From an uncultured virus (IMG/VR IMGVR_UViG_3300010970_000163) (Duplodnaviria > Heunggongvirae > Uroviricota > Caudoviricetes): 64,000 nt of DNA. How positions within the stretch are numbered: position 1 is the stretch's first letter; the number at the start of each line of letters is the position of its first letter. The notes under the pieces were generated by a model that did no database searches, was not told where the DNA came from, and was given only the letters and a program-made list of their open reading frames with translations. The stretch is taken from the IMG/VR virus record IMGVR_UViG_3300010970_000163; one strand, given 5' to 3'. Position numbers and translations under genes: made by a program. Shown in pieces: positions 5,940-34,345 of this stretch.

Positions 5940-8900
5940 ATGGCTAGTACAAAAGATCTATACAACGATTTAAAGGGTAACCCACTTATTAAGATTAATG
6001 ACGATTACGAGACATTCAATCTAAAATTACAAGATGCGAATTACCTTAAAAAGTTAGAAAGTGCTTTAGCTTCTATTGGTGATGACATCAACGCCTACGA
6101 CATTCCTAAAAAAAAAAAGGATGGCGAGGTCGAATCATCTCAGCCTACAGAGCAGCCGTCAGCGACTACAGAGCCAACAGAGACGGCTGGTGTTAATGTA
6201 GATCCAGAGACAGGCCGTGAATTAGGTGCCGATGAGGCGTTTATCAAACAAGGTTATGAGGACCGTGGATCACATTGGTTCAATAAGACTACTGGTCAAA
6301 TTATATACAAGAAGAAGAAAGAGGTAAATCAGAAGCCTGAGATGCCTGTTACTGATTTACAGGCTCCTCCTGAAGCTCCTGAAATGCCTGAGACTCCAGA
6401 GCTTGTTGCTCCTGAGAAGCCTATTGAAGAGCAGGTATTAGAAACACAGGCAGCTCAAACTCCAAATACGGATGTTAACAACTTAGATAAAACTACTGTA
6501 GTAGGTAGTGTTATTTCTGAGCAAGAGCCAGATGCTAATAAAGCAAACAAGATTGTAACTGACGCTAACGCTGTTGCAGGAACTGCTCTCAAGAAGAAGA
6601 AGAGAGGCACAGATGCTAATAAAGCTATTATAACCTACTCTCCGAGTTCCGCAAGTGATATTGTATATGTGTCTGATGGAGACAAGGTTGTTTCTATGGA
6701 TAAGAGAAGTGATAAGTACTCAGATATTATTGCGACTAACCCATACACTGTTCAATTAAAAAACTCAGAGGCGTTTAAGGATCTCATTCAACTCCAAAAA
6801 GAAGGAAATAAACAAGGTTATCAAAACTATTTAGAGACGGCAGGAAATCCAGCTGCACAAGAAATTGCTGACCGTGCCTTCGGTGGTTTTACAAGTGAGC
6901 CTATAATGGAAACTACTATCATTAGTGGAAATAATCAAGATAGACCAACTCGCATCTCTAATAACCCGTTAAACAAATTAAAGCTAGATAACCTCTTCGG
7001 AGCTGCCGAGAACCTATGGAATAATATCATCAATAAAAATGTAGACAGACCTTGGCAAACAGAACAGGAGTATGATGCAGAGGATTTTATTACTAATGTT
7101 GATCCTAGTTTAAGTGAGGAAGAGAAGCAAGCACAACAACAGTTTGACGCTTCTATGTCTGAGGAAACCATGGTTCCAAAAGGTCCTAGACAATTATCTT
7201 TTCCTTCATATGTTCACACGAAAGAAGATAATGAAATCGTAACAGAACAAGAGCAGAAGCAAGAGGAGAAAAAGAGAAGAGCTACTATAGAATTTATTAC
7301 TACGAATCCAGAGACAGGAGAATTAGAGTTGGGTGATGTTAATGATTTAACAGAACTTGAAAGATATAATTTTTATAAAAATGGATCGAAAGTTTTCTTA
7401 CAGAAATGGGAAGAAGAGAAGGCGAAAGAAGTTAGATCTACAATGGAAAACGCTCAGGCTCTTGCAACGGGGAAGCCGGTGAAAATGTATAAAAGCGACT
7501 TTTTAAGTAATCCTGCAAATCAAGCTATTCATAATAAAATTAAAGATAGCAAGTTTGCTCCTAAAGAGGGAGGATCGGAATTAGAAATTTCTCTTGCTGA
7601 AATAAGCAATAAACAGGCTGATGCAGACTATAAAAATCTTCATCAGAACGGTTATAATAATGCGTACAGTACTGAGATAAGAACTCCATATGATATTCAA
7701 TCAGAGTTAGATAACATCGATAAGATTTTAGATGCTCAACCTAAGATGTCTTATGAAGAGAAGATGAAATTGTATAAGCAGAAGGAGAGCTTAAATCAGG
7801 CACTTCTAAATGTTTATGAGCAAAATATTAAAGACTACGCTACATATTTAAGAAATACAGGTCACGAAAAAGCAGCGGCTGATATGCTGTCTACTTATGA
7901 TTATTACAAGAGAAAGACTGGTGGTTTCCAAACGATGCCTGTAAAGGAATTAAGTGATGCCGACAAACGAGCTATCATGAATATCCGCAGTCAGGCTGTT
8001 AATACAACCATGCGTTATTTACAGACTAAGTATCAGACTCTCTCAAATAATGTTGACATAAATGCGTATCAGAAGTTATCTAAGAAACCATTAGAGCAAG
8101 TAGCTAAAGAATTTGAATTTCTTAAGTCTATCGGTGCTTTAGACGAGAATGGCAATATTAATCCATCTGCTAAGATTAAGCAGAGCGATCAAGTTAAGTT
8201 TAGTGATGCTATTCTTAAAATCAATTTAGCTAAAGATCAGATCGCAAGTGCAGCAGAGGCTACAGGAGCAACTCCAGAGAATATTAATGAATTAACTCGC
8301 CTTGGTCAGAAACTAGGTAATCTTCAGAATACAGAAACTTCATTCTATCAAAAGAATGCAATGGAGGATCTTAAAGAGGAGGATGAGAATGATAAAAGAA
8401 ACCAAAAGATAGCGGAAGATAGAATGAAGTCAGAGGACTTCTTTACGTCCTTCTTTTACACGGCATTATATGGAGGAACGAATTTATTTATCCCTGGTTT
8501 ATCAACTCTCATTAAGATTGGTAAAGTGCCTGATATCCTTGCTGATGCTTTAGGGGATGAGACTCAATTATTTGACCAATGGTCTGCATATATCGATGAG
8601 ATGATTAAGGATATGAATGCCTATCAACCTAAAGATATGACAGGTCTTTCTGGCACTCAAAAATTCTGGTTAAATACAACAGCAGGAATCAGTAATTTAG
8701 GAGCTTACGCTGTTTCAGGACTTGTAGGTGGACCTGCATTAACAACCCTAATTATGCTTTCGGATCAAACTGATGAAGCTAAAGCCAATGGATTGGATGA
8801 TGATGAGGCTGCGGCATGGGGTTTATTTACTTCAATGATTCTCGGAAGAATAAATCAATTAGTACCTGATTCTAAAAGCTTCTATGACGCTTTAAAACCT

Positions 8901-11900
8901 TCTACTAAAATTATATTGAAAGCATGGGCTAAAGGCAATTTAACTCGTCCCGAAGCAATGGGTATGTTAAGTAAAGCAATCCTTCCTAGTCTTGAAAAAC
9001 ACCTTAAGAGAACATTAGGAGAGACTGGAGAGGAAATGCTTGAAGAAATTGTCAATCAATTAGGAGGAATGGCTGGTAACTATGTATGGGATAACGCTTC
9101 ATTCAATAAAGATTTTGATCCTAACTCCATTATAGAAGCAGGTGAGAGTGCTGCTTCACTAACAACAGTTTTAGGAGTGTTTCAAAAAGGCGGCAAGAGA
9201 AGTGCAGTTGAACAGAATGTTTTATTAAGTTTTTCTCAAAATAAAAACTACATACTACGAAATGTATCTTCTAATTCTCAAGAAGAATTAAATGTATTAG
9301 ACAAACAATTAACAGAGCTTGAAGCTATGGAAGTTGGTTTACAGTCTATGCCGGGTTACACAGATTTGAGTAATGGAGAAAAAGCTGAAGTGCTATCTGA
9401 ATTATATAGAGCCGAAGCTATAGAGTTAGGTGCTAAGAACAGAGGTCTAGGTAAAAAAGATCCTGGATTTATTGAGGCAGAAAGAATCAGAGAAGAGGTA
9501 TTAAACTCTCTCAAAGCTCCTAAGAAAGGAGAGATACCAACACAACCAGAACTACAAAAACCAAAAACAAATGCCGTACAAGAGCCAAGCACAACAGAAG
9601 TTCTTCCAAGCCAACAAGGCGAAGTTAGAGAAACAGGGCGTAAACGTCAAGGAGTGGAACCAAGCGTCCAAGGGGAAGAAGTTGCCCAAGAAGGTGGGAA
9701 GAAAAAAGTAAATTCAACAGAAGAGTCTCAAGCCTATGTTGATAAATTAACTGAGGTTAAAAAGAACGATCCTGAAACTTACTGGTCAGTGAGTATCCCT
9801 GAGGTTGAGGATGTAGAAAACGGCACCATCATTACAAATGAAGATGGGCAGGCTGTTGTTGGAGAAGATGGTGATATTAAAGCTGTCTATAAGAACCCGG
9901 ATAGTGAGGCTAGACGTGTCTCTGACACTCTATTAAAAGAGGCTATTAAGGCAGGAGGTACTAAGTTAGATAACTTTGACATCTACCTCACTAAGCTATA
10001 TCTAGAAAACGGATTTAGAATTGTTTCTCGTCTTCCATTTAACGAGGAATTTGCTCCTGATGGATGGAATAAAAAGAAGCATGGTACTCCTGATGTAGTG
10101 GCCATGATCTACGATCCAGAGGGTAAGTTAGATATTGAGGAGAAGCAATTTACAAACGAGCAATACGATGAGGCAATAGCTTACCGTGATACTTATGTAG
10201 ACGCTCAAAAACAAGCTTATCCAAAGACTACTGAAACAGATACAGAAGCTAAAGCTCAAGAGGAAAGAAAGTCAACTGCTGATAAGATCAGAGGTCTAAA
10301 GAGTGAGGGTGGTAGAGCTTATAGTGCTGCTCTTGGTATTCCTATTGCCATTTGGGATGGTGCTGTTGAGCTTATTGCTACCTCTATAGAGGCTGGCGAG
10401 AGCTTTGTTAACGCAATAAACAAGGCAAAAGAATATCTTAAGCAACAATTGGGTGATGATTACAATGAAGATGTTGCTGAAGAGTTTATGGATGAGGTTA
10501 TTAACCAATCTCCTGTTCAATTAAACAATACAGATAAGGTTAAAGGAACTCCTGTAAAAGTAAATCCTGATGGTCATAACCTTTCTTTTGTAAAAGAAGA
10601 AGACTTGATTGATATCGATGCTTTAATTAAAGACATTGAGGCAAAAGGTGAAACCGTGTGGTTTTGGGTAGCCGATCAGTTAGGAAGAGGTTATTACATG
10701 GATTCGAAGACAGGAGAAAAGCATTATTTAGATGCAGGTCCTTCTTACGCTTTAGATCCTAAAAACAGAGAGAAGAATGTTATTTGGGCAAGTGGGGTTG
10801 AAGCAACAACATTAAACAAAAATATTGCCGCTGCAGATTATATATTTGTAATTAGCGGATCTGCCGATAAGAGTAAATTATTTAATAAGGCTGTTTTTCA
10901 AATTTTTCAAGATAAGATTGGTGATTACGACACATTTAAAAAAGAAGTGTTAGCGTCTAAAACAACCCAGGCAATTAAAGACGTGTTAGAAGCTCATGAT
11001 TCATGGGAAACTTTAATTGAAGATGCTTCAGTAGACAATCCAAAAACAGGAAAAGTAGGCACGGGTAGAAAGAAATTTTTAATTGAACTTGTTGAAGCTT
11101 ATAATAAACCTAATACTAATCTTCACAAAACATTAAAAGAAAGAAATGCTTTAATAAATGTTGATGAACTTAGAGATGGGTTTTACGCAGACAATAATTT
11201 TGATCAAAATGATATAATGCTTGTTTTAAAGCCTGAGAAATTAGGGGATAAATCAGAGCATTCAACATATGAAAATGATTTAATTGGTGAAGTTGTTGGG
11301 GTTCCTAATAAGAAGATAAACGCATATGATATTCTTCCTGATAATTTAAGAAAGGAAACGAATAAACAAAGAACAACGCAATCACAATCTATAGCTCCTT
11401 ATGGATCTGGAATACGAAACATTTCAGCATCTCAAAACATAGCACGTGGATTAAGAGAGGCTGCTGATTTAATTAGAAAAGGTAAGAGAGGCGGCCTTGC
11501 AATGAATCCTATTGATCCATTCTTAGAAGTTGTTGCTAAGGCTCTTGAGGCAGGTGCTTCTCTAACAGAGGCTATTGCAAAAGGTATAGAGGCATTCAAG
11601 AACTCTGACTTCTACAAGAACTTAACTGCTCAAGAGAAGAGTAAGGCTGTAAACGATCTTAAGAAGGCAATGGATGAGCAGATTGCTCCGACTATTGCTA
11701 ATCTTATCAACGAAGAAATGTTGAAGGGTAAGGGTGTTTACACAGCTTCACAAAATGTGAAGAAGGAGATGATTAAGGAAGGCGTAATTGACGAGGTAAC
11801 ATTTGATCGCATCGTTGGGAAGGCTGAAAAAATTGTTAAAGCACAGGCAGAACAGATGATAGTAGACGCTACAGATAAAGCTGTGGAGGACATTAGATCA

Positions 11901-14900
11901 GGTGCCGGTTTAGACAATGCGTTGAATGCTCTTTCTGACTTTATTAATAATGAAGTTGGTTTCTACAAATCTCAAGATAAGACTCTTAAGAAAGACTTGG
12001 CTGATAAGGCTAAGGCTAACGTGATGGATCAGTTGGCATCTAAGATAGCAGGCGATGCTAAGTCTTACATGGAGGTTGAGAACATGAGTAAGGCAGATGC
12101 TATTGAGAAAGCTTTGGGAGACGCTACATCCGCAGGTATGGAGTTCTCTACAGTAGATCAATTGCGTGAATCAGTTAAAAACTCTCTCGATAAAATCAAG
12201 TCTAAAGATGCCGCTGAGGCTAGAAAGAATGAGCCTGTGGTTACCACTACTGATAAGCAGATCATGAAGGATAAGCTTAAGGCTATGGACGCTGCTCTAA
12301 AAGAGGCAGTAGCTAAAGCAAAGCAAGATAAGAAGGATGAGAAAGAGATGCGTCAATTAGTTCGTAATTGGGTGAAGGAATATTTAAAAACCTCAGGTAT
12401 CTCGGCTAAGATTTCTCCTACTCAACTGAAGGCTATCGTTTCAAGGGCAAACGGACTTGTTGCTGACATGACGGACACGAAGATGAAGGCTCTAGTAGAT
12501 TACGTTGAGAAGGTGGTTGCTGATCAGGAGTACGCTCAAATGATTAACGATCTTGAAAAGAACAAGAAGGGAGCGAGTAAGAAAAGACACAACCAGTACA
12601 CGGAAGCGGTGAGAAGATATCTATCTCTTCCCCTCGTGAACTCAGATGGCACCCCTCTTATGAATGATCAGGAGTTAAAGGCGTATGCTGAATCTGTTGC
12701 TCGTTTAAATCAAAGCGTTCCTGACCATAGTCGTATGGACATGGTTCTTGCTACTCGTGTGTTAAACGATTACAATGACATTCCTTCTAAGTTAGAGAAG
12801 TCTGATTTTGATGATGCTGTTACTGATATTAAGAACTCTACTATTAGTGATTTAACTGAGTACAATGAATTTGTAAAGAAGGTTAATAAGGCGAAGAGAA
12901 TACTCGACTCTCTCTACAACAACGGTAAAGTTACAGAGGATGAGTACAACGATGCTTTAAATGAATTGTATACCAAGGAGAACGGTCTAAGAGTTTATGA
13001 GGCAGATCATAACGATCAAATTGACTTACTTAAATATGATTTGATTAAGGATATTTTAGATATATCTGACTATGTAGACAAGTCAGGTTTTATCGGTCAG
13101 CAAGCAGAAGTTTACAAGAGATTAGAGGTGATGTTAAAGACAACACCAAGTATGATTAGAAGTCTCGATGTTAAAGATCTCGTTAAGTTGACAGAGGTGA
13201 TGGATCGTATGGCTGATGGTTTTGTAGCTGAGAAAGAATTGCGTGAGATCGTAAACAAAGCTGAGACGAGAGGTCAGAAGAAAGGGGAGAGCATTGTTAA
13301 TCAATTAGCTTCTATCTACAAGTCTTTAAACACTCCTGACTTGACTAAGTTGAGAAACTTACTTAAACTAACGGAGCCTGCTCAAATAGAACGTGTCCTT
13401 GGACTTGCCTCAGGACCTATATACAATAATATTATTCAACCAATCAACTCGGCATTTACTAAAATGCGTAAGAACACAGAGAGATTGATGGATGACTATT
13501 ACAAGGCTCGTCAAGAGAATAAATTTAAGGGGGATGTTGTTGTTAAGAGATCTGAGTATGATAAAGGAATCGGATCTAAGTTAAGCGGTAATATTACAGT
13601 TAAGGCTGATAAGTATTACAGTACTCGTGTTGCCATGTTGTCTAGCATCTTCGACTACGCTAGCAAGGCTATGGATCAGAAGGCAGATACAAAAGACTTC
13701 TGGGGCGAGAACTTAGAGAAGGCTGATGTTAAAAAGGCTTACCACAACGATGGTTCTCTCCACATTGTTAATGACATTTATTCTAAATTAAATAACGATC
13801 CTCGCTTCCAAACGAATGGCAAATTAGATTACACTAAGATCTACGAAGCATTTGTTCAGGATCCTAAATCTGTAATGACAGAGTCTGAATATAAGTTATA
13901 CGAGGCTACTCAAAAAATAAATAAAACAGAAATTGGAGAGGCTTTAGTAAGTGCCAATGCTATCCGTGGTATCAATGGAGAGATCAGTGCCGTACACTAC
14001 CCAAGAAAGTCTCTCGGAAAATCTTCTGCGGAAGATGCTGACTTAGTTGCAGGAACTGGAGGAAAGGTTGGAGGTCTTCGTGCAGGATCTTCATACGCTC
14101 GTGTGCTTGAGACTCCTAAAGATGCTATCGATTTAAATCTTGACAGAGTAATGGCAACTCAGATCTATGAAGCCTCTCGTGATTTATATTTAAACGATGC
14201 CATTCAACAGACAAATGAGGTATTCAGAAACGCTAAGGAGAATGCTAACCCTGACGAGAAGGCTATATTACAAGCTATTCAAGACTGGAATAGAAAGCGT
14301 GTAGACTTTGAATTAGAAAAATCTGCTAAGAATGTTGTTACTCGTTTATTTGCAGGTTTTGCTCCTTACGCTTTAATAGGTAAGGTAAGAACTCCTACCG
14401 AGTTTACAACCAACCTATTGGCAGGTATATTCAACCAAATTAGTAATGTTGCTAAGATAGGACCTAGAGCTTTAGTAAGTCCTATTAATCCTCTTCAAAC
14501 ACAGGAGGCTAAGAAGATAATGGAGAAATTTGATAGCCCCGTTCAGTTTATGAGTTGGAGTATGAAGACATATGCAACATACGGCAAGGGGAAGGTGGAT
14601 AAAAATTACCTATCTTCTTTCTACAACAATGCTGTTAATGTGTTAATGAATATCTCCGGTCCTCTAACAGTTGGAGAATGGAAGGCAGACTTTGACGCTA
14701 AATTCCAAGAGTTAACAGGAGAGAGGTACAACGAAGCCAAACACTTTGATAATGATGAATATTTCTACGCTATGCAGAAAGCATCATCATATGCAAACCA
14801 ACAAATTGAAAGAATTAAAGGTGGCGCATTCAAAGGTCAAGGAAAACAATTCGTTGCCACTAATCCTATAACAGATATCAAGAAGATATTCCCTGGTGTA

Positions 14901-16382
14901 AAGATTAAGGATGAAGAGGGTATGGTAAGTGCCAATGACACCTTTGCTCAAATGACCAATATGTTCAACAACTTTGTTGGGCGTGATGTTAAAAACTTTG
15001 TTTCTGGAGGAAAGCAAGCGGCTACACTTAAAGATGTTACAGGTGGATTTAAAGATATGTTAGGTTCCACTTACCGATTAGGATCGTACTACGTAATATA
15101 CAATCTTATTGACGCTGTAATGAAATCTGCTCTTGGAGATGACGAAGAAAAGAAAATGGGTGATAAGAAGGTAGAGATGTTTACTACTCCTGAAGGGCAA
15201 TGGGAAACTGCATTTAATACGGTATTAAACCTAGCTACAACAGTGGCTACTTCTAAATACGGGGCTAATGGACGTGCTATTGCTGTAGCTGCTTTAAATA
15301 CTTTATATAATTCTACAGATAATCCAGATCAAAAAGAAAGAGCTGCTGCCGCTTTAAAGTCTATGTACTTCCAAGATCCTATTGATACTGAGAAATTTGG
15401 AGCTGCCGAGAAAATTATTTATACTACGGCAACGATGTACATTCCTCCTGCTGATGTCATTGCTGATCAATTACAGAGAGAGTTTGAAAGATTAGCAGGA
15501 AGCGATAAATATAAGGGAGCTACTATTACAGATTTCTTTGATCAGGCAGGTAAGTTTGTTAATGATCCTGAAGTTGTAGAATTTAATAAATTCCTAGCCG
15601 GTTCATTAACATTAGCTACTCAGCTTGCTGTTTTGTCAGGTAAACCTATTCCGTTCTTAAAGGATATAGTGAAACTTGTTAAGAAAGATGTTCAAGACAA
15701 GCAGAACATAATTATCTTAAATAAGAATGGAGAGAACATGGTTGAAGGGGTACTTGATTTTGACATTGATGGAAATGGATTGGTTTCTGTAACTGTTGAT
15801 ATTCCTGGAATGCCTGCTGATCAGAAGAAAATTATTAATGAATCTCTCTCCAATGTGGCTAGTGATAAATTTAACAAACTGATTGAGAAAAACAAGGAGC
15901 GTATAGATAAAATGCCTGAGGGTAATATTGAACAAGAGGCTGAAAAGTTTGCGCAAATTCAGTATTACGCAGATTTAGCTAAACATCAGGCTAAAGTAGA
16001 AGCTAAACTTGCTAAACCAGAAGATGCTCCGAAAGAACCTACTTTATCAAGTGACTATTTTGAAAACAAAGAGGCGAAAGAGAAGATGGTAAAACAATAC
16101 CAAGAGGCAAGAGCTAAACGTAAATTCTCCTCTGCATCTAAACTGTCAACAACAAGAGATATTCAAGAGGGTATACAACAATTGATCGATAATAGTGAGT
16201 ATAAAGATGTTTACAACTCTCTTAATCCTAATAAAGTTGAGAATATTGGAGCGATAAAAGCGATGAATGCCTACTTCAACGATCTCTACCAATACAATGT
16301 AACACCTGTAATGGGGAAAGAACCAAAGGCAAAGGATTATTTTTATAAAGATTCTAACGGAAAAATAACTCCTGTTGAATAA
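5940..16382 (+). CDS. Giant (3480 aa) polyvalent internal virion/ejection protein with a GNAT-like domain
   Basis: Mostly helical. GNAT-like segment at about 9720-10220 (GDIKAVYKNP...AIKAGGTKLDNFDIYLTKLYLENGFRIVSRLPFNEEFAPDGW). Last gene of the ejection cassette. Confidence 0.65.
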   Translation: MASTKDLYNDLKGNPLIKINDDYETFNLKLQDANYLKKLESALASIGDDINAYDIPKKKKDGEVESSQPTEQPSATTEPTETAGVNVDPETGRELGADEAFIKQGYEDRGSHWFNKTTGQIIYKKKKEVNQKPEMPVTDLQAPPEAPEMPETPELVAPEKPIEEQVLETQAAQTPNTDVNNLDKTTVVGSVISEQEPDANKANKIVTDANAVAGTALKKKKRGTDANKAIITYSPSSASDIVYVSDGDKVVSMDKRSDKYSDIIATNPYTVQLKNSEAFKDLIQLQKEGNKQGYQNYLETAGNPAAQEIADRAFGGFTSEPIMETTIISGNNQDRPTRISNNPLNKLKLDNLFGAAENLWNNIINKNVDRPWQTEQEYDAEDFITNVDPSLSEEEKQAQQQFDASMSEETMVPKGPRQLSFPSYVHTKEDNEIVTEQEQKQEEKKRRATIEFITTNPETGELELGDVNDLTELERYNFYKNGSKVFLQKWEEEKAKEVRSTMENAQALATGKPVKMYKSDFLSNPANQAIHNKIKDSKFAPKEGGSELEISLAEISNKQADADYKNLHQNGYNNAYSTEIRTPYDIQSELDNIDKILDAQPKMSYEEKMKLYKQKESLNQALLNVYEQNIKDYATYLRNTGHEKAAADMLSTYDYYKRKTGGFQTMPVKELSDADKRAIMNIRSQAVNTTMRYLQTKYQTLSNNVDINAYQKLSKKPLEQVAKEFEFLKSIGALDENGNINPSAKIKQSDQVKFSDAILKINLAKDQIASAAEATGATPENINELTRLGQKLGNLQNTETSFYQKNAMEDLKEEDENDKRNQKIAEDRMKSEDFFTSFFYTALYGGTNLFIPGLSTLIKIGKVPDILADALGDETQLFDQWSAYIDEMIKDMNAYQPKDMTGLSGTQKFWLNTTAGISNLGAYAVSGLVGGPALTTLIMLSDQTDEAKANGLDDDEAAAWGLFTSMILGRINQLVPDSKSFYDALKPSTKIILKAWAKGNLTRPEAMGMLSKAILPSLEKHLKRTLGETGEEMLEEIVNQLGGMAGNYVWDNASFNKDFDPNSIIEAGESAASLTTVLGVFQKGGKRSAVEQNVLLSFSQNKNYILRNVSSNSQEELNVLDKQLTELEAMEVGLQSMPGYTDLSNGEKAEVLSELYRAEAIELGAKNRGLGKKDPGFIEAERIREEVLNSLKAPKKGEIPTQPELQKPKTNAVQEPSTTEVLPSQQGEVRETGRKRQGVEPSVQGEEVAQEGGKKKVNSTEESQAYVDKLTEVKKNDPETYWSVSIPEVEDVENGTIITNEDGQAVVGEDGDIKAVYKNPDSEARRVSDTLLKEAIKAGGTKLDNFDIYLTKLYLENGFRIVSRLPFNEEFAPDGWNKKKHGTPDVVAMIYDPEGKLDIEEKQFTNEQYDEAIAYRDTYVDAQKQAYPKTTETDTEAKAQEERKSTADKIRGLKSEGGRAYSAALGIPIAIWDGAVELIATSIEAGESFVNAINKAKEYLKQQLGDDYNEDVAEEFMDEVINQSPVQLNNTDKVKGTPVKVNPDGHNLSFVKEEDLIDIDALIKDIEAKGETVWFWVADQLGRGYYMDSKTGEKHYLDAGPSYALDPKNREKNVIWASGVEATTLNKNIAAADYIFVISGSADKSKLFNKAVFQIFQDKIGDYDTFKKEVLASKTTQAIKDVLEAHDSWETLIEDASVDNPKTGKVGTGRKKFLIELVEAYNKPNTNLHKTLKERNALINVDELRDGFYADNNFDQNDIMLVLKPEKLGDKSEHSTYENDLIGEVVGVPNKKINAYDILPDNLRKETNKQRTTQSQSIAPYGSGIRNISASQNIARGLREAADLIRKGKRGGLAMNPIDPFLEVVAKALEAGASLTEAIAKGIEAFKNSDFYKNLTAQEKSKAVNDLKKAMDEQIAPTIANLINEEMLKGKGVYTASQNVKKEMIKEGVIDEVTFDRIVGKAEKIVKAQAEQMIVDATDKAVEDIRSGAGLDNALNALSDFINNEVGFYKSQDKTLKKDLADKAKANVMDQLASKIAGDAKSYMEVENMSKADAIEKALGDATSAGMEFSTVDQLRESVKNSLDKIKSKDAAEARKNEPVVTTTDKQIMKDKLKAMDAALKEAVAKAKQDKKDEKEMRQLVRNWVKEYLKTSGISAKISPTQLKAIVSRANGLVADMTDTKMKALVDYVEKVVADQEYAQMINDLEKNKKGASKKRHNQYTEAVRRYLSLPLVNSDGTPLMNDQELKAYAESVARLNQSVPDHSRMDMVLATRVLNDYNDIPSKLEKSDFDDAVTDIKNSTISDLTEYNEFVKKVNKAKRILDSLYNNGKVTEDEYNDALNELYTKENGLRVYEADHNDQIDLLKYDLIKDILDISDYVDKSGFIGQQAEVYKRLEVMLKTTPSMIRSLDVKDLVKLTEVMDRMADGFVAEKELREIVNKAETRGQKKGESIVNQLASIYKSLNTPDLTKLRNLLKLTEPAQIERVLGLASGPIYNNIIQPINSAFTKMRKNTERLMDDYYKARQENKFKGDVVVKRSEYDKGIGSKLSGNITVKADKYYSTRVAMLSSIFDYASKAMDQKADTKDFWGENLEKADVKKAYHNDGSLHIVNDIYSKLNNDPRFQTNGKLDYTKIYEAFVQDPKSVMTESEYKLYEATQKINKTEIGEALVSANAIRGINGEISAVHYPRKSLGKSSAEDADLVAGTGGKVGGLRAGSSYARVLETPKDAIDLNLDRVMATQIYEASRDLYLNDAIQQTNEVFRNAKENANPDEKAILQAIQDWNRKRVDFELEKSAKNVVTRLFAGFAPYALIGKVRTPTEFTTNLLAGIFNQISNVAKIGPRALVSPINPLQTQEAKKIMEKFDSPVQFMSWSMKTYATYGKGKVDKNYLSSFYNNAVNVLMNISGPLTVGEWKADFDAKFQELTGERYNEAKHFDNDEYFYAMQKASSYANQQIERIKGGAFKGQGKQFVATNPITDIKKIFPGVKIKDEEGMVSANDTFAQMTNMFNNFVGRDVKNFVSGGKQAATLKDVTGGFKDMLGSTYRLGSYYVIYNLIDAVMKSALGDDEEKKMGDKKVEMFTTPEGQWETAFNTVLNLATTVATSKYGANGRAIAVAALNTLYNSTDNPDQKERAAAALKSMYFQDPIDTEKFGAAEKIIYTTATMYIPPADVIADQLQREFERLAGSDKYKGATITDFFDQAGKFVNDPEVVEFNKFLAGSLTLATQLAVLSGKPIPFLKDIVKLVKKDVQDKQNIIILNKNGENMVEGVLDFDIDGNGLVSVTVDIPGMPADQKKIINESLSNVASDKFNKLIEKNKERIDKMPEGNIEQEAEKFAQIQYYADLAKHQAKVEAKLAKPEDAPKEPTLSSDYFENKEAKEKMVKQYQEARAKRKFSSASKLSTTRDIQEGIQQLIDNSEYKDVYNSLNPNKVENIGAIKAMNAYFNDLYQYNVTPVMGKEPKAKDYFYKDSNGKITPVE

Positions 16383-22914: not shown

Positions 22915-23922
22915 ATGGCATTTACTCAAGAAGAAATAGATTTCCTAATAGAAAATTACCCAGAAAAAGGAAAAATGTGGTGTTGCGAACAGTTAAATAA
23001 ACCTGAATCGCAAATAAGAACAAAAGCAGCAATTTTAGGACTTAGAATAAATAGAAAATCTAATTTTTTTATTGACTTTCAAAAAAGAGCAGCAGAATCA
23101 AAAAGAGGCAAAAAAAGACCTGAGCATTCTGCACTTATGAAAAAGTTAGTTAAAACGAAGAAATTTGATAGGTTTAGAATAACAAGCGAAGAGGATAAAA
23201 TAAGAATATCCATAACAAACAAAAAATGGATAAAAGAAAATGGGCATCCTAGAGGAATGTTGGGTAAGACACACAGCGAAGATTTAAAGAAAAAAATGTC
23301 TGAGCGTTCAAAAAAAATGTGGCAAGATCCAAATTCAATACTAAACAGCCTTGAATATAGACAGCGAGTATCTAACAGAATGTCAAAACTAATGAATTAC
23401 AGATTAAAAAACAGTGCGTCAAGCATATACAGTAAATCAAAAAAAGGTACTATATCAATAGGCGGTAATATTTTTTTTGCAAGATCTTCTTGGGAAGCTA
23501 ATATTGCTTCGTATTTAGAATTTTTAAAACAAAATAAAGAAATAGCTGCCTGGGAACATGAGCCTGAAACATTTTGGTTTCATGCAATTAAGAGAGGTGT
23601 TAGGTCTTATTTGCCTGATTTTAGGATTACAAATAATGACGGGAGTATATACTATATAGAGGTAAAAGGTTGGATGGATAATAAATCTAAAACGAAGCTG
23701 AAAAGAATGAGTAAATATTACCCTGATGTTGTTTTAGAATTAATAGACTCAAAAAGGTATAATGCAATATCTAAAAATAAAGGTGTTATTCCTAATTGGG
23801 GAATGCTTGATTCTATAGAAGATAACAGAACTGTAAGAAAGTGTTTAATGGAAGAGTGTGATCAACCACATCATTCGAAAAATCTTTGCAGAAAGCATTT
23901 TTACCTGAAGTATAAAAAATAA
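22915..23922 (+). CDS. Free-standing homing-endonuclease-like gene (NUMOD3-like repeats plus PD-(D/E)xK nuclease)
   Basis: GKTHSEDLKKKMSE motif, RSSWE, YLPDF...YIEVKGW and a C-terminal Cys/His finger. Much more A-rich than its neighbours. Confidence 0.75.
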   Translation: MAFTQEEIDFLIENYPEKGKMWCCEQLNKPESQIRTKAAILGLRINRKSNFFIDFQKRAAESKRGKKRPEHSALMKKLVKTKKFDRFRITSEEDKIRISITNKKWIKENGHPRGMLGKTHSEDLKKKMSERSKKMWQDPNSILNSLEYRQRVSNRMSKLMNYRLKNSASSIYSKSKKGTISIGGNIFFARSSWEANIASYLEFLKQNKEIAAWEHEPETFWFHAIKRGVRSYLPDFRITNNDGSIYYIEVKGWMDNKSKTKLKRMSKYYPDVVLELIDSKRYNAISKNKGVIPNWGMLDSIEDNRTVRKCLMEECDQPHHSKNLCRKHFYLKYKK

Positions 23923-27189: not shown

Positions 27190-30100
27190 TTAATAATCGT
27201 CTCTCTCGAAGTCTGCATCTTCTTCCTTAGTGCATTCGTAGCACAGCCCTATCTCATCTTCTATTTCGTCTTGAATCTCTGAATCGGAAAGACCTTCGTA
27301 CTCTGGATTGAATCTTCGTAAGTCTGCAATGCGGTCATTGATTGCATCTTGTTCGCAGTAACGGCAGTAGTCACTCATATGATTTATTTTTTATTGGTTT
27401 ATACAAATATACAAAAGAATTATAAACTTTTACAATTCCTCTCGAAAAAAGTTTCTAACAATTCTATGTGTTCTTTATGTTCCTCCTTAATCTCCCTTCC
27501 GTCAGGGCTGAAAATCCTCTTGAGAATCTTCCTCCTCTGATCGATATCCATAGGGTAGAGAGCAAGGTCAAAGGCCAGATAAGCCTTAGGATCATTTTTC
27601 ATTCCGGTCCTAGTCAGTATGGCAAGCACTCTTTTGTGAAGGTTGTCTAACTCCATGTACTTCTCGGCACGGGTTCTATATGTCTTACTACGAGAAAAGT
27701 TTGCCATTGTTTCTATCTTCAGTTCGTTCTATACATTTCTTAATTGCTCTCCAATCTTCCACATCCTCCTCGTTAAATTTAGGTGTACCGAAGAAGAGAG
27801 ACATCATCCTACTTATATGCTTCTTGTCATAATCTGGACGGAATACCAAGAGAGCCTTCCGAGGGTTTATATTCCTCTCGGCAAAATACAAGAACCATTT
27901 AGCCCTTTTTTTGTGTACTGATTTCATCTATTACCTTTTCAATTTTTGAGCGTAATTCATCTACCTCGTCACAATACTCGATCAGCCCCTGTAGTAATAC
28001 TTCGATCTTCTCCCTGTTCTTTAGAGGCTTTTTCCGGCCAACAAGATCGTTCATATACCTAGTTGAGAGGCCTTTCTTCTTACATATATAGTACATATTT
28101 ATTACGTCAGCATGAGACCTACATGATGAAATAAGATAATCTAAAACGTGCTTGGGTATCTCTTGTTGCCCTATCTTATTTTCTTCCACGCCCCCCTTAG
28201 CTTTATTGTCTCCTACTATCATCATCGGCCCGTTTTTTTTCGGTTTGTGCGTCTGAACGCCAGACGTTTTCTGAAGTTGTGCAAAAATATGCTCACCCTG
28301 ATTCGTGTGTACGTCAGGTCTAATTTCCTATCGGTTTCTTGCTTAATCATGTGCGTGTGTTTTTTAATTAGTGAAATAGTGTTTAATATATTGTGTTACA
28401 AATATAGTGAAAATAAAAAAAGGGAATAGGCAATTAAGCCTACTCCCTCTTTCGTTAACCAATAAACACCACGAACTAATTGTATTGTAAATGTTTCTCT
28501 AGGAAGATAATCTCGCTGTCATCGAACGGACTCCAGTCTCCAGCTGAATCTTCATCAGCCTCCATGTCGAAGGTGTAGGCGCAGTTCTCAATTGTAACTT
28601 CTTCCTCGTCCATGTTAATGTAACCTTGCAGGTACACCTGAACTTCTTTCTTGCCTGAGTCCACAACGTGAACTGAGTCAAAGGCTAGTAATCTTCCTGA
28701 CGGGTAAACGTCTAGTTCTACTTGGTCTGCTATGTCTTTAATGAAGTACTTCATAATTTGCCCTCCAATTCGTTTATCTCGTTTGTTAATTGTATTAATG
28801 CCTGCTTCCTCTTCTCAAGAGTCTCTCGCTTGATTCTGGCCATGTCCTCCTGATACGTCTCATGCCATGCAGATAGAGATTCCAATACGGCAGAGGTAAG
28901 AGAGTCGAGAACCTCCTCAATGTTTGTGGCGTAGTGGAACTCCAAGGTAACCCCTCGGTAATTCGAGAAGTTAACCTTGAACTCAACCTCACCGAAGTTG
29001 AAGTACACGGAGGTGAACTCCCTCTCCTTATCGGCATTCATTTGGTGTATCCTAACATTAGGCGTGTGTCTCACTATCTCTCCAATGATGGAGTAATTCT
29101 CATGCATATCTGCAACATTACGTGCAATGCTAATTAGCTTTTCGATTTGTGTTTTCATGTGTGTAATTAATTAAGTAAGTTTTTAATTGCTGAAGCAAGA
29201 GGTATACTCATGAGTAAACCTATGCCGATTAATGTTATTGTCATGGACTCCAAAGAGATTCCCGTGTACAAGATAATGATCAGGACAGCGGCAATTCCAT
29301 ATGCAATTCTCTCGTTACGCATTTGCACCTCCAGTCAAGAACTCAATCTTGTTATTCTCTGCAAGGAATTTCTTCCCTTCAGTAGTTGTTACTGAGTGCA
29401 AATACATTTCAGGGTTTGAGCGTGTCCCTACATTCTCGCTTAAGTAGTCTTCAATCTCGTGAACTACTCCGTTAATTTTAACTTTCATCATGGCATTATG
29501 TTTTTAAATTGTTCTTGGTCTTTTTTCCATTGTTCATATTCAGCAATGGCCTGAGAGAAGGAGGATAGTAAGAGGTTTCTCCTCTTGTACTCCACCTTCC
29601 TGTTTTGGTGAACCTCTAGCGTGTACGTCTCACCCGTCTTATTGAAGAAGAATGTTGTCTCGTTCATAGGTGTGTATTCGTTAGTTCTAGTTCAACCCTG
29701 TAATCGTGTCCTCGTCCTCCAGATTCGTAGGTAACGAGATTACCTTGATAGGTAACCTCGACTTCGTAGCCTAACTCGTCTGTCATCTCGAAGAATCTGG
29801 AGAGAGCCTTGTCTCGTGTGTGGAATACAATGTCTTGTATGCCTCCGATATGTTCTTGCATTGGGCGTTTCTTAATTGTTAGTACATTCATGTGTTTAGA
29901 TTTTAGTTGATTCGATTAGTGTGTAATACTCATCATATAGGTCGTTGAAGATATCTTGCGCCTCTTCGGTGTATTTCTCCCCCTCTTCAGATTCCTCCCA
30001 AATTTGTATGCGGTCATAGTGTACTCTTTCAAGGTGTGCCGAAGCAAGTTCAGAAGCAAGTTCTACGGCATTAATGGTGATTTCGTGTGTGTTCATAGCA

Positions 30101-31638
30101 ATGAAATTTTAGGGGTTGTTTTAGATTTATTCTTAAAGTAATGTACTGCTTCATCTAGACTACTGAAGTACTGCTGGTCTGAGTGGTTGTAAAGTTTATT
30201 TCCATTGCTCAGGTATAGCTCTTTGCTCTCCTCGTCCCACACCGACTCGACAATTGTATCATGTTCAATGGTGTAGTAAGTGTCTCCCTCGGTAAAAGGG
30301 TAGCTCCAATCAGAGTCATGTAATTGAGCCAGAAAAACAATGGTCTTTACTGCCTCTAGCGTATCTGAATCTTCAAACACCTCACTCTCCATCAAGTCAT
30401 TTCGTACCTGAATGGAAAGTGTATTGATTACTTTGAAGATATCTTCCTGTGTTACTTGTTGTGTGTTCATGTGTTTATTGTTTTTTTTTAGTTTATACTT
30501 TCTTTGTATCCTACGCTAATTCCAATGTCAAGTCCTTGCTCCAGAGCCTCGGTTAATTGCCCGTGAGATTCAATCAGGGACTCTGAGTCATCGTCATATA
30601 AAGCGAATAATTCAAATAATCCTGATGTGTAAATTTCCTTTGCCTTGCCCGTTACTAACAAGTAAACGAACCCGTCTTTCATTGTCTTTGTTGTCTTGTT
30701 TTTCATATGTTTATTAGTTGTTAAATGTTTCTTCCGCTAACTCTGTTACCTCTCCCTCAGGAGAAATAAACCCTGCGTCTATCATGGCCGAAGCTACTCG
30801 TCCATAGTGTCCCTGAAGACTCCAAGCCATTTTAGTTTTTACTAGGTCGGCAAAGAAGTTAATTGTCTCAGCCTCGTTCAGCTCCCCTGATTCGTAGGCC
30901 ATTAGTGTGTTAATGTTCATGTGTGTGTATTTATTAGTTAAGTTTCTCAATTGTCAGTACGTCCATCATTTTTCGGTACATAAGTTTCGTGTAGTTCATA
31001 ACGTGTACCTCGTTATTGAAGTTCACCTCACTCACTACCACTCTCCCGTAGATTTGAACTCGTAGTTCTACTTTAGCCCTGCAGGGAAAGGTTATTGCTC
31101 CCTTTAACATCGGCAATTTCATGTTGTGATAAGTTGTTTTCATTTTACGTTTATTGAATTAAGTACATTTTTGAACCCCTTGTACACGGCCTGCTTGTAG
31201 GCCTTACTATCATGGCCTAGAACACTCGACATCATTAGGCTAGTCATCGAGGCGTAACGGAAAACAATTTCCTTGTACACATGTTCGAATGTCTCCCCGT
31301 TTCGAAGGGCTGTGTACAATTCCTCCTCCGAATTTATCACGGGGTTAGTGAAGGACTCTTCCTGATTCGCTCTCATGTGTGCATCAGCGATTTGTTTCTG
31401 AAGTTTAGTAATACGTTCCATGTGTGATTTATTTATTTGGTTATTAGTACTCGCAGTGAATGATTTCGATTTCCATTTTAAACGTATTCCCTAGAGACCA
31501 CGCATACATTTTATCATTTGTTATTTTCAGTGAATTGTGTCTCGCATGTGATAAGAGAATACTGATTGCTCTTGCTTCACTCTGAAAAACTGATGAATTT
31601 GTTAATTCACGATTGGTGTAGAAATTTACTTTGTACAT
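27190..31638 (-). other. Cluster of about 18 small co-oriented hypothetical early genes
   Basis: Tightly packed minus-strand ORFs of 40-135 aa with A/C-rich leaders, including 27190-27378, 27420-27707, 27688-27927, 27899-28225, 28476-28754, 28751-29158, 29664-29891, 29896-30096, 30093-30470, 30488-30706, 30714-30950, 30934-31143, 31140-31421 and 31444-31638. Confidence 0.75.
28416..28452 (-). terminator. Intrinsic terminator
   Basis: Minus strand GGGAGTAGGC-ttaatt-GCCTATTCCC followed by a T run, downstream of 28476-28754. Confidence 0.7.
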
Positions 31639-31651
31639 GTTTATAAATATT

Positions 31652-31729
31652 GGTTAAGAGCGAACCCCGTAGGGCCTGAGCATGCACTCGTTTAATCGCT
31701 TTCGTCCACTCAGGACTCATCAGTTAACC
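31652..31729 (-). ncRNA. Type I hammerhead ribozyme (HH-B)
   Basis: GGUUAA-CUGAUGA-GUCC ugagu GGAC-GAAA-GCGA...UCGC-UC-UUAACC: complete core with three stems and a CUC cleavage triplet. Confidence 0.9.
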
Positions 31730-32070
31730 TAGAACTCTATGAAGTACTCTGCATCAAAGGTGTATTGCTCTCCTTTGAACTCAGGGTTATACACTAGCGT
31801 TCCCTCCTCGTTGAACTTCATCCCTATGCACTCTTGTGTGAACTTCATGCACATGGCACCCACTAAAATTCTAGCACTCTCCGAGTCCATGGCGGTGATA
31901 ATTTTAGCGACCAAGGTCGGTTCAGGATTAGTAATGTACTCTCCAAGGTCTTCTCGTGTAGCGACTATCTCACCCTCGAAGGCGTGTACCAAGGCACGAG
32001 TAATTAGTTCGAAAGAGTAAGGGTTATTGTTTAACCCGATGTTCAGTTGAAATACGTTCATGTTTTCCAT
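31729..32070 (-). CDS. Putative S-adenosylmethionine lyase (SAMase), anti-restriction protein
   Basis: GEY...EPTLV...MCMKFTQECI...GTLVY matches in order the T3 SAMase pattern as I recall it (GCY...EKTV...AC...EQDCV...AGLVY). Early-region location fits. Confidence 0.65.
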   Translation of the reverse strand: MENMNVFQLNIGLNNNPYSFELITRALVHAFEGEIVATREDLGEYITNPEPTLVAKIITAMDSESARILVGAMCMKFTQECIGMKFNEEGTLVYNPEFKGEQYTFDAEYFIEF

Positions 32071-32086
32071 GTGTTTATTGTTTATT

Positions 32087-32140
32087 AGTTAAGACACGGG
32101 CGAACCCGTGTTTCGTCTCTCTAAGACTCATCAGTTAACC
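32087..32140 (-). ncRNA. Type I hammerhead ribozyme (HH-A)
   Basis: GGUUAA-CUGAUGA-GUCU uagag AGAC-GAAA-CACGGG uucg CCCGUG-UC-UUAACU: canonical GUC cleavage site and a UUCG tetraloop. Confidence 0.93.
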
Positions 32141-32145
32141 TTTAT

Positions 32146-33002
32146 CTACTGAACTCTTACCTCCCATCCATAGCCTCGGTACTTAGCCGCCCATATATGT
32201 AGCTCCTCGGCAGGAATGTACTCCGCTGTTGGTGAAGCGTCGCCAATAGCTTTCTTCCAAAAGATATCCTGCCCGTTGCGTATATCGAAGGTGAATATCA
32301 TAACCTCTCTCGGTTCTTCGTACACCTCGTCCATGTAATCCTGTAGGACGTTGAACATCCTTTGTCTCTCCGCGTCATCCGAGTAAGCGTACTCGATAAA
32401 GTCTCTGATTTGGTCATCCGCATTTTGCTTGTTCATAGTTTCTAGTTGTTTATTGTTTATTGATTATTTGTTTGTTTGTTTTTAGTTAACTCTCTCCCAC
32501 TCACCAAGGCAGTGAAGGTAAAAATACTCCCGAAGATAACCCCGAACATTGCAAGGGGTGTAAGGGTAAGCACAAGAGATAAGGCAATAGCCACGAGGCT
32601 AAGTTCTAAGATAGTTTTCATGTGTTTTTATTTTTTTATAGTTAGTGTACGTTTAACGTGTGATAGCCCTTGAAACATTAAGAACCTCTTAGTTATTTGC
32701 AAGGCATCAGCTCGGTCTGTTGCATTAATAGTCGTGCTATCTATCTCCTCTCCCCCCTTAGTGAATAGGGTTAAAATCCATTGTTTTGTTTCCATGATTT
32801 TTGAATTATTTGGTTATACTTTTTTAGATTCGATTAGGTTGAAATAGTCCATGTATAGTATGTGAAATATCTCGTTAGCCTCTTCGGTGTAATATTTTCC
32901 GTCCTCCTCCCAAATTACTATTTTATCCGTATACACTCTCTCAAGGTGTAAGGAAGCTAATTCAGAGGCAAGGTCTTGTGCGTTGATTGTTCTAGTAAAC
33001 AT
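32146..33002 (-). other. First early genes (32146-32436, two short ORFs at about 32456-32620 and 32627-32795, and 32814-33002)
   Basis: Co-oriented small ORFs downstream of the promoter at 33398-33430. Confidence 0.65.
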
Positions 33003-33025: not shown

Positions 33026-33086
33026 CGAAACGTAGGGACTCGAACCCTACAACCTCTCTCACGAGCAGGTCTCTCCAAGCGTTTCA
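33026..33086 (-). ncRNA. tRNA-like element (acceptor plus T arm, no anticodon arm)
   Basis: UGAAAC/GUUUCG stem stacked on GUAGGG-UUCGAGU-CCCUAC (6+6 bp), a GG-containing D-like loop and a GNRA hairpin. Confidence 0.65.
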
Positions 33087-33098
33087 GTGTTTCCGATA

Positions 33099-33109
33099 TG
33101 TCAAAGAAC
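33099..33109 (-). promoter_or_regulatory. boxA-like antitermination site
   Basis: GTTCTTTGACA resembles rrn boxA (GCTCTTTAACA) and lies at the end of the early leader. Confidence 0.6.
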
Positions 33110-33110
33110 T

Positions 33111-33392
33111 ACAGGCTTTATACGCTTTCCTGTTATGCGTCTCAGTCTCTCTAAGATACCACCCTTGCTCAGTTAGGCTCTTAGCTATAGTGTAGGTGAC
33201 TGATAAACTCTACCTTGACGTGTTTTCTCGGATGCGTCTTTTCCCCGTGTCGTTAGGCATACTTGCTGTATTACTTACTAGCTTTTCTCTACACACTCAG
33301 TTCTGATATCGCATCAGTACATGTGGTGAATACTTCGTGTATGTGACTCCTAAACGTTATTTCAATTTGTCAGTATCAATTCCGTTGAATGA
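33111..33392 (-). ncRNA. Putative structured leader ncRNA
   Basis: About 280 nt with no ORF after a promoter. Helix CGUUUAGG..CAUAC/GUAUG-CCUAACG, hairpin CUGAU-gcgau-AUCAG, and motifs shared with 40583-40797. Confidence 0.45.
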
Positions 33393-33397
33393 TGGAG

Positions 33398-33430
33398 CAA
33401 ACCTACAACCGTTCTAAATGTTATTCCAAA
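33398..33430 (-). promoter_or_regulatory. Major early promoter (Bacteroidota -33/-7)
   Basis: TTTG-N21-TAGGTTTG on the minus strand. Confidence 0.8.
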
Positions 33431-34345
33431 TATATTTTAAACTATTTTCAAAATACGTTCTGAAACCCGCATTTTATGCACCCACTTTTTTCATTTTTGC
33501 TCTACAGCCCAATAGATTCAATACCTCATTTTGAAAAAACCAATGAATACAAGGCCTGCAGAAGCAGTAAAGAAACATATAAAATGGCAAAAAATACGCA
33601 TGAAAATAGAAACGTAGCAATAGCAAGGGTTTGAGGTGTAGTATGATTAAAAATGTGAGGATTGGCAGGACTTATAGAAGCTCACGAAATGCGTTGTGAA
33701 AAGGTTTTATTGTGCCTGATTTTAGAAAAAGCTTCAACTGGTGAGCGTGTTTTTTGATAGGTCGGAGTATTTCATGTGGTAATATGTGGTATTTATTATG
33801 CCGATAATGATACACGAAACGTATTAGGTTTTGAGGTTTAGTTCAGGGGTTATTTCATGGCAAAATATGTATTGAAATGTGCCGATAATTGAGAGTGAAA
33901 TGTGGGTGAATTTGCGGTGGTATTTCGCACCTGATTGGAGGGGTTATTTCGAGGGTTATTTTGTGCCGTGTTCGAATGTTAATTCATGGCATGAGTGAGA
34001 GGTTATGTTTTGGGGTTCATTGAGGTGCTATAGAGAGACGTTCACGGGCTGTATAATATCTAGGCATGAGAGAGAGTAATACACCACGTTTGCGGGCTTG
34101 TATCGAGGTCATGCTTTGCCGAGGTGAGAGGCTTGGGATCCCACTATTGACGCGGTGTGTAGCGATTTGTTATGCCGAGAGGTTGAGGCTTGGCTTGGGC
34201 TGTTTCTCAGTGTTGACGCGGTGTTCAGAGCTTTGGGGCTTGACTTTTGGGGTTGCTTTGGCCTAGGCCGGGGTGGGTTCGTAAACACGCATTTCCTGTG
34301 GCCGAGGGGGGTGGCCTAGCGTGGGGGAAACCCCCTTCCCTAAAC
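33431..34345. other. Long non-coding region, putative genome terminus/packaging site or origin
   Basis: About 900 nt without a credible ORF, G/T-skewed on the + strand, with short direct repeats and a GC-rich end. Confidence 0.45.

Follow-up and report, generated by a model that had tools for sequence, protein, structure and literature searches.

Hammerhead ribozymes around a putative SAM-lyase gene are part of a set of predicted cutting devices at the leaders of early phage genes

A stretch of 64,000 nt from an uncultured Caudoviricetes virus (IMG/VR record IMGVR_UViG_3300010970_000163; here called the window) carries, on either side of a gene for a 113-aa protein, two short sequences that read as type I hammerhead ribozymes. 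The arrangement raises the question of whether the pair serves to excise and dose the message between them, as an earlier note had proposed for a toxic anti-restriction enzyme, or whether the bracket is one instance of a more general way of cutting an early transcript. The elements concerned are:

32087..32140 (−): HH1, a type I hammerhead, from direct reading, fold, descriptor scan and a weak Rfam match
31652..31729 (−): HH2, a type I hammerhead with a branched stem III, from direct reading, fold and descriptor scan
31729..32070 (−): 113-aa ORF with a predicted phage SAM-lyase fold; G43-x-Y45, E50, Q79-E80
32071..32092 (−): 22-nt A-rich leader, no Shine-Dalgarno sequence, starting with the 3′ strand of HH1 stem I
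31639..31657 (−): 19-nt leader of the gene that follows, its first bases being the 3′ strand of HH2 stem I
31658..32092 (−): predicted released RNA of 435 nt, comprising the 22-nt leader, the ORF and most of HH2
32146..32436 (−): 96-aa ORF upstream of HH1, no significant family match
31444..31638 (−): 64-aa ORF downstream of HH2, no family match

The hammerhead core (C3-U4-G5-A6-N7-G8-A9, G12-A13-A14-A15.1 and U16.1-H17) is intact in both elements, and when each is folded alone the minimum-energy structure is the hammerhead shape, with stems II and III closed and stem I open. By direct reading and descriptor scan, HH1 has a GGUUAA/UUAACU stem I, the core CUGAUGA, GAAA and a GUC triplet; its stem II is 4 bp with a 5-nt loop and its stem III 6 bp with a UUCG loop. 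HH2 combines a GGUUAA/UUAACC stem I and a core identical to that of HH1 with a CUC triplet, and its stem III branches into two small hairpins, as it also does in the relatives L003 and L007. Cuts are predicted between 32093 and 32092 in HH1 and between 31658 and 31657 in HH2, and the last base of the stop codon of the 113-aa ORF is the first G of HH2 stem I. The earlier claims of two complete ribozymes around one gene, of the cut coordinates, of a 435-nt release and of leaders of about 20 nt (here 22 and 19 nt) were all borne out. From hammerhead chemistry (PMC6765202), the released RNA would begin with a 5′-OH and end in a cyclic phosphate. Within HH2 (31663-31699, −), loop II and its closing bases, CCUGAGU, are by eye complementary to GCUCAGG in the branched stem III, a pairing that could give an alternative fold.

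The full descriptor matched the window twice, while 100 dinucleotide shuffles gave a mean of 0.03 matches and a maximum of 1, none having two. The loose core pattern alone was not significant in the window (29 matches against 23.5 expected), and the folding z-scores were unremarkable (−1.63 for HH1, −0.80 for HH2). Comparison with the Rfam hammerhead models, which the earlier note had put forward as a check, did not confirm the assignment: at gathering score neither element was reported in the window, and with E up to 10 HH1 scored 17.2 bits on Hammerhead_1 (RF00163; cut-off 34) and 26.4 bits on RAGATH-1-hammerhead (RF03152; cut-off 56.3), HH2 not being among the matches. Core CUGANGA, GAAA, UH and the open stem I are common to the window elements and both models; the differences are the scores of HH1, far below both cut-offs, the 4-bp stem II and the branched stem III of HH2. 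Rfam at its cut-offs therefore misses these ribozymes. A BLASTN search of HH1 against cultured phages gave one match, which was attributed to chance. When naked upstream sequence was included in equilibrium folding, predicted stem I pairing dropped to 0.00–0.10 for HH1 (50–350 nt added) and to 0.00–0.02 for HH2 (at least 100 nt added), so that activity of the two may depend on co-transcriptional folding or on ribosomes. The 5′ arms of both lie at a stop codon or at most 6 nt from one, and folding may on this ground too depend on the order of transcription or on ribosomes. We conclude that HH1 and HH2 look like genuine self-cutting hammerheads, their cleavage being a prediction from core and fold.

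Comparison with related ribozymes shows which parts of the structure are held constant. In 69 loci chosen by their SAM-lyase-like protein, near-identical loci included, we counted 59 distinct ribozymes of type I. Their stem I measures 6 bp in 57 cases, with compensatory variants, and reads GGUUAA/UUAACC in 38, and the predicted cut falls 18–26 nt before an ATG in all 59. In a sample not selected on stem I, GGUUAA/UUAACC occurs in 20 of 160 and the distance from cut to ATG is looser (14–32 nt in 95 of 155). A pattern without a pairing rule gave 146 matches, with stem II paired in 141 and the full type I fold in 139. The first base of loop II covaries with position 1.7, being U–A in 140 and A–U in 4 of 144 cases with no exception, the four A–U cases coming from about two lineages; HH1 and HH2 are both U–A. 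This covariation may reflect a tertiary contact of loop II with stem I, and recalls the contact between loop II and U1.7 in hammerheads of Schistosoma and sTRSV (O'Rourke et al., cited after PMC11875169). There, as here, an unpaired 1.7 following a 6-bp stem I is paired to a loop II base; in the account given by that source it is the last loop base, A, that meets U1.7, whereas in the window family the first loop base, U, would meet A1.7, in a geometry that is putative. A search for a pseudoknot of several bases joining loop II to the 3′ tail turned up no covariation beyond the single 1.7 pair.

The 3′ strand of stem I also opens a leader that reads UAAC(C/U)A and continues with A-rich bases. 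In the window this leader stands 18–23 nt before seven of the first nine early genes, at four of these seven sites without any device, and relatives likewise show it without one. Because the leader is common to early genes, the match between stem I of HH1 and stem I of HH2 is most simply a by-product of it. The earlier note had taken the shared GGUUAA strand as a sign of selection on structure; that strand is better accounted for by the leader, whereas structure-level selection is seen in stems II and III and in the loop II–1.7 pair. None of 50 leaders carries a Shine-Dalgarno sequence, and A occupies positions −3, −6, −12 and −13 in 30, 40, 36 and 39 of the 50, respectively. A at these positions helps initiation in Flavobacterium (F. 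johnsoniae), according to PMC6847099. The HH1 cut raises the predicted accessibility of the start region by little, from 0.68 to 0.73, so simple unmasking of the start site is unsupported.

The window encodes a terminase, a portal, a virion protein, a primase-helicase and RecT. Its terminase and portal match those of Pachyviridae (phi18:3, phi19:3, phi13:2, phi46:3 and Gundel_1), of elemo phages and of Panino at 20–28% identity, and because of these relatives and of the leaders we infer Flavobacteriia-type hosts for what is probably a podovirus. HH1 and HH2 sit in a run of small orphan ORFs that extends from promoter-like motifs to a terminator-like hairpin:

33398..33434 (−): two TAnnTTTG matches upstream of the early cluster, in a region conserved in relatives
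33026..33086 (−): 61-nt tRNA top-half mimic at the head of the operon, ∼22 nt before the first ATG
28456..28470 (−): 15 nt antisense to the early leader, immediately ahead of the terminator
28416..28453 (−): strong intrinsic-terminator-like hairpin that closes the early cluster

TAnnTTTG is a promoter motif of the Bacteroidota type. A single long RNA, begun at a promoter near 33.4 kb and ended at the terminator near 28.4 kb, would cover the cluster, and it is this layout that suggests that the cluster is early. Gene content varies among relatives: in L001 and L004 the 64-aa ORF is absent from its slot and a 93-aa gene comes directly after the ribozyme. Between the promoter motifs and the tRNA mimic lies a non-coding leader of ∼300 nt (33090-33400, −) with conserved blocks and with modules that are present or absent among relatives; it has no Rfam match. 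Elsewhere in the window, a 3,480-aa ORF in the virion module (5940-16382, +) has almost no family match and possibly encodes an ejected protein, and a run of N at about 2060-2810 breaks the first large ORF.

The element at the operon head consists of a 7-bp acceptor, a T arm and one irregular stem, with no anticodon arm; ARAGORN reports no tRNA in the window, and the element fails the canonical cloverleaf (D and anticodon arms). Its structure, drawn from the window copy, is kept in six distinct relatives, where 97.5% of cells pair and six pairs have changed on both sides, the sequences compared being related ones. Such mimics occur in 26 of the 69 SAM-lyase loci, although some calls may be degenerate tRNAs, and 16 of 18 distinct mimics end 14–23 nt before an ATG, seven of them at 22 nt. 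Sorted by device, 26 loci have hammerheads only, 16 have both, 10 have mimics only and 17 have neither; each shuffled set gave 0–1 devices. An independent pattern sample was less regular, with a hammerhead near 1 of 46 mimics and an ATG 14–30 nt away in 22 of 46. Viral contigs contain many elements of the mimic kind (46 of 107 distinct matches to the pattern), and the window itself has a second T-arm-like hairpin at 23460-23580 (−), with a degenerate acceptor stem and shortly before an ATG, that is not an ARAGORN call. In the pattern-found locus L017, a match to Twister-P1 (1765-1829, −; E 1.2e-7, below cut-off) shares a cluster with a type I hammerhead and a T-arm element.

The tRNA mimics would presumably be cut by RNase Z or P, which weakens the earlier suggestion that processing proceeds without host RNases, since elements needing host enzymes take the same slots as hammerheads. 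In mascRNA and menRNA and in mitochondrial tRNA punctuation, tRNA-like folds mark cut sites. The window element is alike in that a tRNA-like fold without a usable anticodon could mark a cut; those systems differ in being eukaryotic, matches to RF01684 here reach 17–26 bits against a cut-off of 42.5, and cutting here is putative.

What, then, is the protein encoded between HH1 and HH2? Single-sequence searches of Pfam, PHROG, PDB and Atlas left it unnamed, with no Pfam SAM-lyase match for the protein itself, and matches to MetJ and a glycosyl hydrolase were dismissed as noise. Of 125 homologues, 37 match the Pfam family S-AdoMet_lyase (PF23780; E up to 0.01, best 6.8e-7), and the best PDB match of the 125-homologue profile is T3 SAMase, a weak match (E 0.37) in which E50 and Q79 align with the T3 Glu and Gln. 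The predicted structure (pLDDT 93.9) is a ferredoxin-like fold of the PII type. Foldseek placed Svi3-3 (6ZM9) first (E 4.1e-4), and so did a wide VIA search (Z 10.8, rmsd 2.5, 98 residues aligned; next best 8.2), at an identity to any solved lyase of 12–20%. Guo et al. name conserved phage SAM-lyase residues (PMC7877911); mapped to Svi3-3 numbering by motif, the counterparts are G43, Y45, E50 and Q79, and in the 125 homologues G43 is kept in 97 (S in 22), Y/W/F45 in 125, E50 in 124 and Q79 in 125. The window protein resembles Svi3-3, T3 SAMase (7OCK) and PF23780 in fold, in an IGLN strand, in G-x-Y, E and Q-E-C/S and in the early location of its gene (PMC7877911); it differs from the two enzymes in sequence (∼15% identity), and its activity, which would be the cleavage of SAM to MTA and homoserine lactone, and a trimeric state are putative.

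A SAM-AMP lyase (an anti-CRISPR like AcrIIIB4) or a non-catalytic protein with a PII fold would account for the low identity and for the missing Pfam match. The Clostridium botulinum SAM-AMP lyase ranks third in Foldseek, and a catalytic Glu and Gln are common to both kinds of enzyme, whereas SAM-AMP lyases act specifically on SAM-AMP and have a distinct T-loop (bioRxiv 2025.04.28.651013). Nevertheless, Svi3-3 leads both structural searches, with a Z score of 10.8 against 6.6 for the SAM-AMP lyase, and the PF23780 matches of homologues together with the conserved G-x-Y/W/F, E and Q speak against both variants, which we regard as unlikely. The guess in the earlier note that the gene encodes a SAM lyase is supported by fold, active-site residues and family matches, and we consider it likely, the activity itself being a prediction. 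Such an enzyme would probably act against restriction or BREX, by analogy with T3, whose literature and not the window protein is the source of these roles. The Panino homologue (L330:2841-3191; PP540027.1, PANI_CDS0017) is annotated as a SAM-dependent methyltransferase, as is phrog_2226; a SAM lyase is the more likely identity for PANI_CDS0017.

The ribozyme pair might have evolved to excise and dose this message in particular. Some observations point that way: in the seven closest loci a type I hammerhead lies directly after the gene in all seven and also directly before it in five, across the 69 loci one lies directly downstream in 14 and directly upstream in 8, and a tRNA mimic lies directly downstream in seven. 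In the cultured phage elemoA_7-9A a hammerhead follows the homologue at a distance of ∼70 nt, high expression of wild-type T3 SAMase is toxic (PMC7877911), and ArdA-like and ArdC-like proteins are among the 8 of 147 representatives of downstream ORFs (at least 45 aa) that match Pfam. The wider survey argues otherwise. Of the 69 loci, 42 have a coding-strand hammerhead, of type I in 33 and of type III in 20, and none has one on the opposite strand; Rfam on 20 of the 27 hammerhead-free loci gave a single tRNA only. Type I ribozymes directly on both sides of the gene are confined to 5 of the 69, all close kin, and in 46 neither flanking slot is filled, a count that misses a few in which the stop codon overlaps the ribozyme. 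The closest loci carry two to four type I hammerheads each, spread across several early genes, so that ribozymes precede other genes too. Loci found by the ribozyme pattern contain a SAM-lyase relative in 5 of 80 and 2 of 80 cases, and ORFs downstream of hammerheads are diverse (199 distinct, in 156 clusters). In five of five whole records the core pattern occurs only one to four times, clustered within ∼2.3 kb beside the SAM-lyase gene. The survey that the earlier note had called for therefore found the association with hammerheads and, in only 5 of 69 loci, the tight bracket. A bracket specific to the SAM lyase does not hold in these sequences: the gene is one passenger, and a device built for this enzyme is distinctly improbable.

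We think it probable instead that interchangeable devices sever the early transcript where the leader begins, yielding short messages with defined ends that are independent of their neighbours. Some intergenic gaps would hold a cutting device, in the window HH1, HH2 and the tRNA top-half mimic, and the cut would fall at the first bases of a (U)UAAC(C/U)A leader, ∼18–26 nt before the AUG. After self-cutting by a hammerhead, the downstream message would start with a 5′-OH and a short leader free of structure, and the upstream message would have a folded 3′ end bearing a cyclic phosphate. Stability and translation of each message would then be independent of the neighbouring gene, which would suit a cluster in which genes are frequently swapped. 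Processing of an early polycistron, the role that the earlier note thought likely, is supported by the cores, the strand bias and the placement, in vivo cleavage being predicted from these. RNA ends with a 5′-OH or a cyclic phosphate have a protective effect; 5′-OH protection cannot be the common purpose, because the 5′ ends left by RNase Z would differ from those left by hammerheads. The presence of a tRNA mimic in a hammerhead slot suggests that what is selected is the cut itself. Against this reading stand the 17 of 69 loci in which the descriptors find no device, the leader alone at four of the seven window sites, the loss of stem I with upstream sequence, the looser distance of 14–32 nt in the sample unbiased for stem I, and the rarity of hammerheads near mimics in the independent sample.

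The matched stems allow another fate for the 435-nt RNA, namely that it re-forms HH2 with its own 5′ end and ligates into a circle. In sequence, UUAACU of the window can pair fully with the downstream GGUUAA, and in pattern-found loci 26 of 43 adjacent pairs are re-pairable against 5.1 by permutation. In those same loci, though, stems II and III within one locus resemble each other more as well, which is what duplication would produce, and in SAM-lyase loci the number of re-pairable pairs is that of chance (15 of 28, against 15.3 by permutation). The arms around the SAM-lyase gene in L001 and L003 mismatch next to the junction, the released fragment is not predicted to re-pair its 5′ end, and tRNA mimics could not self-ligate. 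Perreault et al. raised the idea of circles and detected none (PMC3088659). The cassettes might also be mainly mobile or recombination units that ferry early genes, cleavage being incidental or weak. Close relatives differ in gene content at the borders of the cassettes, the downstream ORFs form 156 clusters, arms from one genome resemble each other more in pattern-found loci, and stem I is unstable in long contexts. Against this, the catalytic cores, stem lengths and the loop II–1.7 pair stay constant although stems II and III have diverged, and this divergence reduces homology at the DNA level; stem II arms of adjacent hammerheads are identical in none of 27 pairs in SAM-lyase loci, and the strand bias is strict. 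We give circles and recombination units alike very little probability beside cutting at the leader.

An extended form of the preferred reading would make type I and type III hammerheads, twister and mimics all interchangeable, because only a new 5′ end at the standard leader would count, with that end read by a common factor, possibly the antisense stretch, and with anti-defence genes jointly turned on and off; we regard this as doubtful. The antisense stretch pairs best with the leader of the first gene (−16.4 kcal/mol), and other window sites pair as well. Its 8-nt core is kept before the terminator in four of five relatives searched, those four being the ones that hold the region, and it forms a hairpin loop in a short fold only, not in longer folds. 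Its role remains a lead.

Genes flanked by hammerheads are not new, having been known since 2011, when Perreault et al. described, in the main text of their paper, hammerheads flanking single prophage genes or short blocks, with one array around ardA; three tandem arrays cleaved in vitro and one in E. coli (PMC3088659). The window cluster shows the pattern of such an array, with several coding-strand hammerheads flanking single genes of varying identity, and shares with those arrays the position of several hammerheads between small phage genes, the proposed single-gene messages and the variety of flanked genes. Unlike the arrays as the main text describes them, the window family is uniformly of a short type I (6-bp stem I, 4-bp stem II, 5-nt loop, unpaired A1.7), a shared leader begins with the 3′ strand of its stem I, a SAM lyase is among the passengers, and tRNA mimics occupy some slots; this contrast rests on main-text descriptions, and the alignments and supplements of the 2011 paper may hold such sequences. 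A literature search of partial coverage gave no report of hammerheads next to SAM lyases, nor of any in these phages. The T7 and T3 early regions contain a full set of RNase III sites, with a link to gene 0.3. As proposed for the window, they sever an early polycistron that includes an anti-restriction gene at points between genes; they differ in needing a host enzyme and a long hairpin and in leaving a 5′-phosphate. Cutting of T7 early RNA by RNase III at R1.1 is mentioned in PMC6121014.

The role of most self-cleaving ribozymes of bacteria and phages is still open (PMC6765202). For this family the prediction is sharp: cleavage should fall on the first bases of the leader, ∼22 nt before the AUG. 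A single bracket is ordinary; the value lies in the shared leader, the interchangeable devices, the covarying loop II–1.7 pair and the cultured carriers. Among seven cultured records searched, three have a hammerhead (elemoA_7-9A, phi18:3 and phi19:3), and none was recognised in Panino, phi13:2, phi46:3 or Gundel_1. Because three cultured phages carry the cassette, the question of cleavage is testable in infection. In Flavobacterium phage elemoA_7-9A (Elemovirus), the type I element that follows the SAM-lyase homologue has a stem III mismatch and failed the strict scan, and a type III element, read by eye, precedes the first gene of the cluster. Cellulophaga phages phi18:3 and phi19:3 have type I hammerheads with the A–U swap at loop II–1.7, and in phi18:3 ardA is the fifth gene downstream of the hammerhead. 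The device slot also marks small orphan genes as anti-defence candidates. At L331:8378-8485 (NC_055852.1), a hypothetical protein of 35 aa annotated on the opposite strand (KNV10_gp68) overlaps the hammerhead and is probably spurious. SAM-lyase domains are also found inside proteins of 1,856–2,822 aa (P0038, P0090, P0103, P0115, P0151 and P0152), which are possibly anti-restriction polyproteins injected with the virion.
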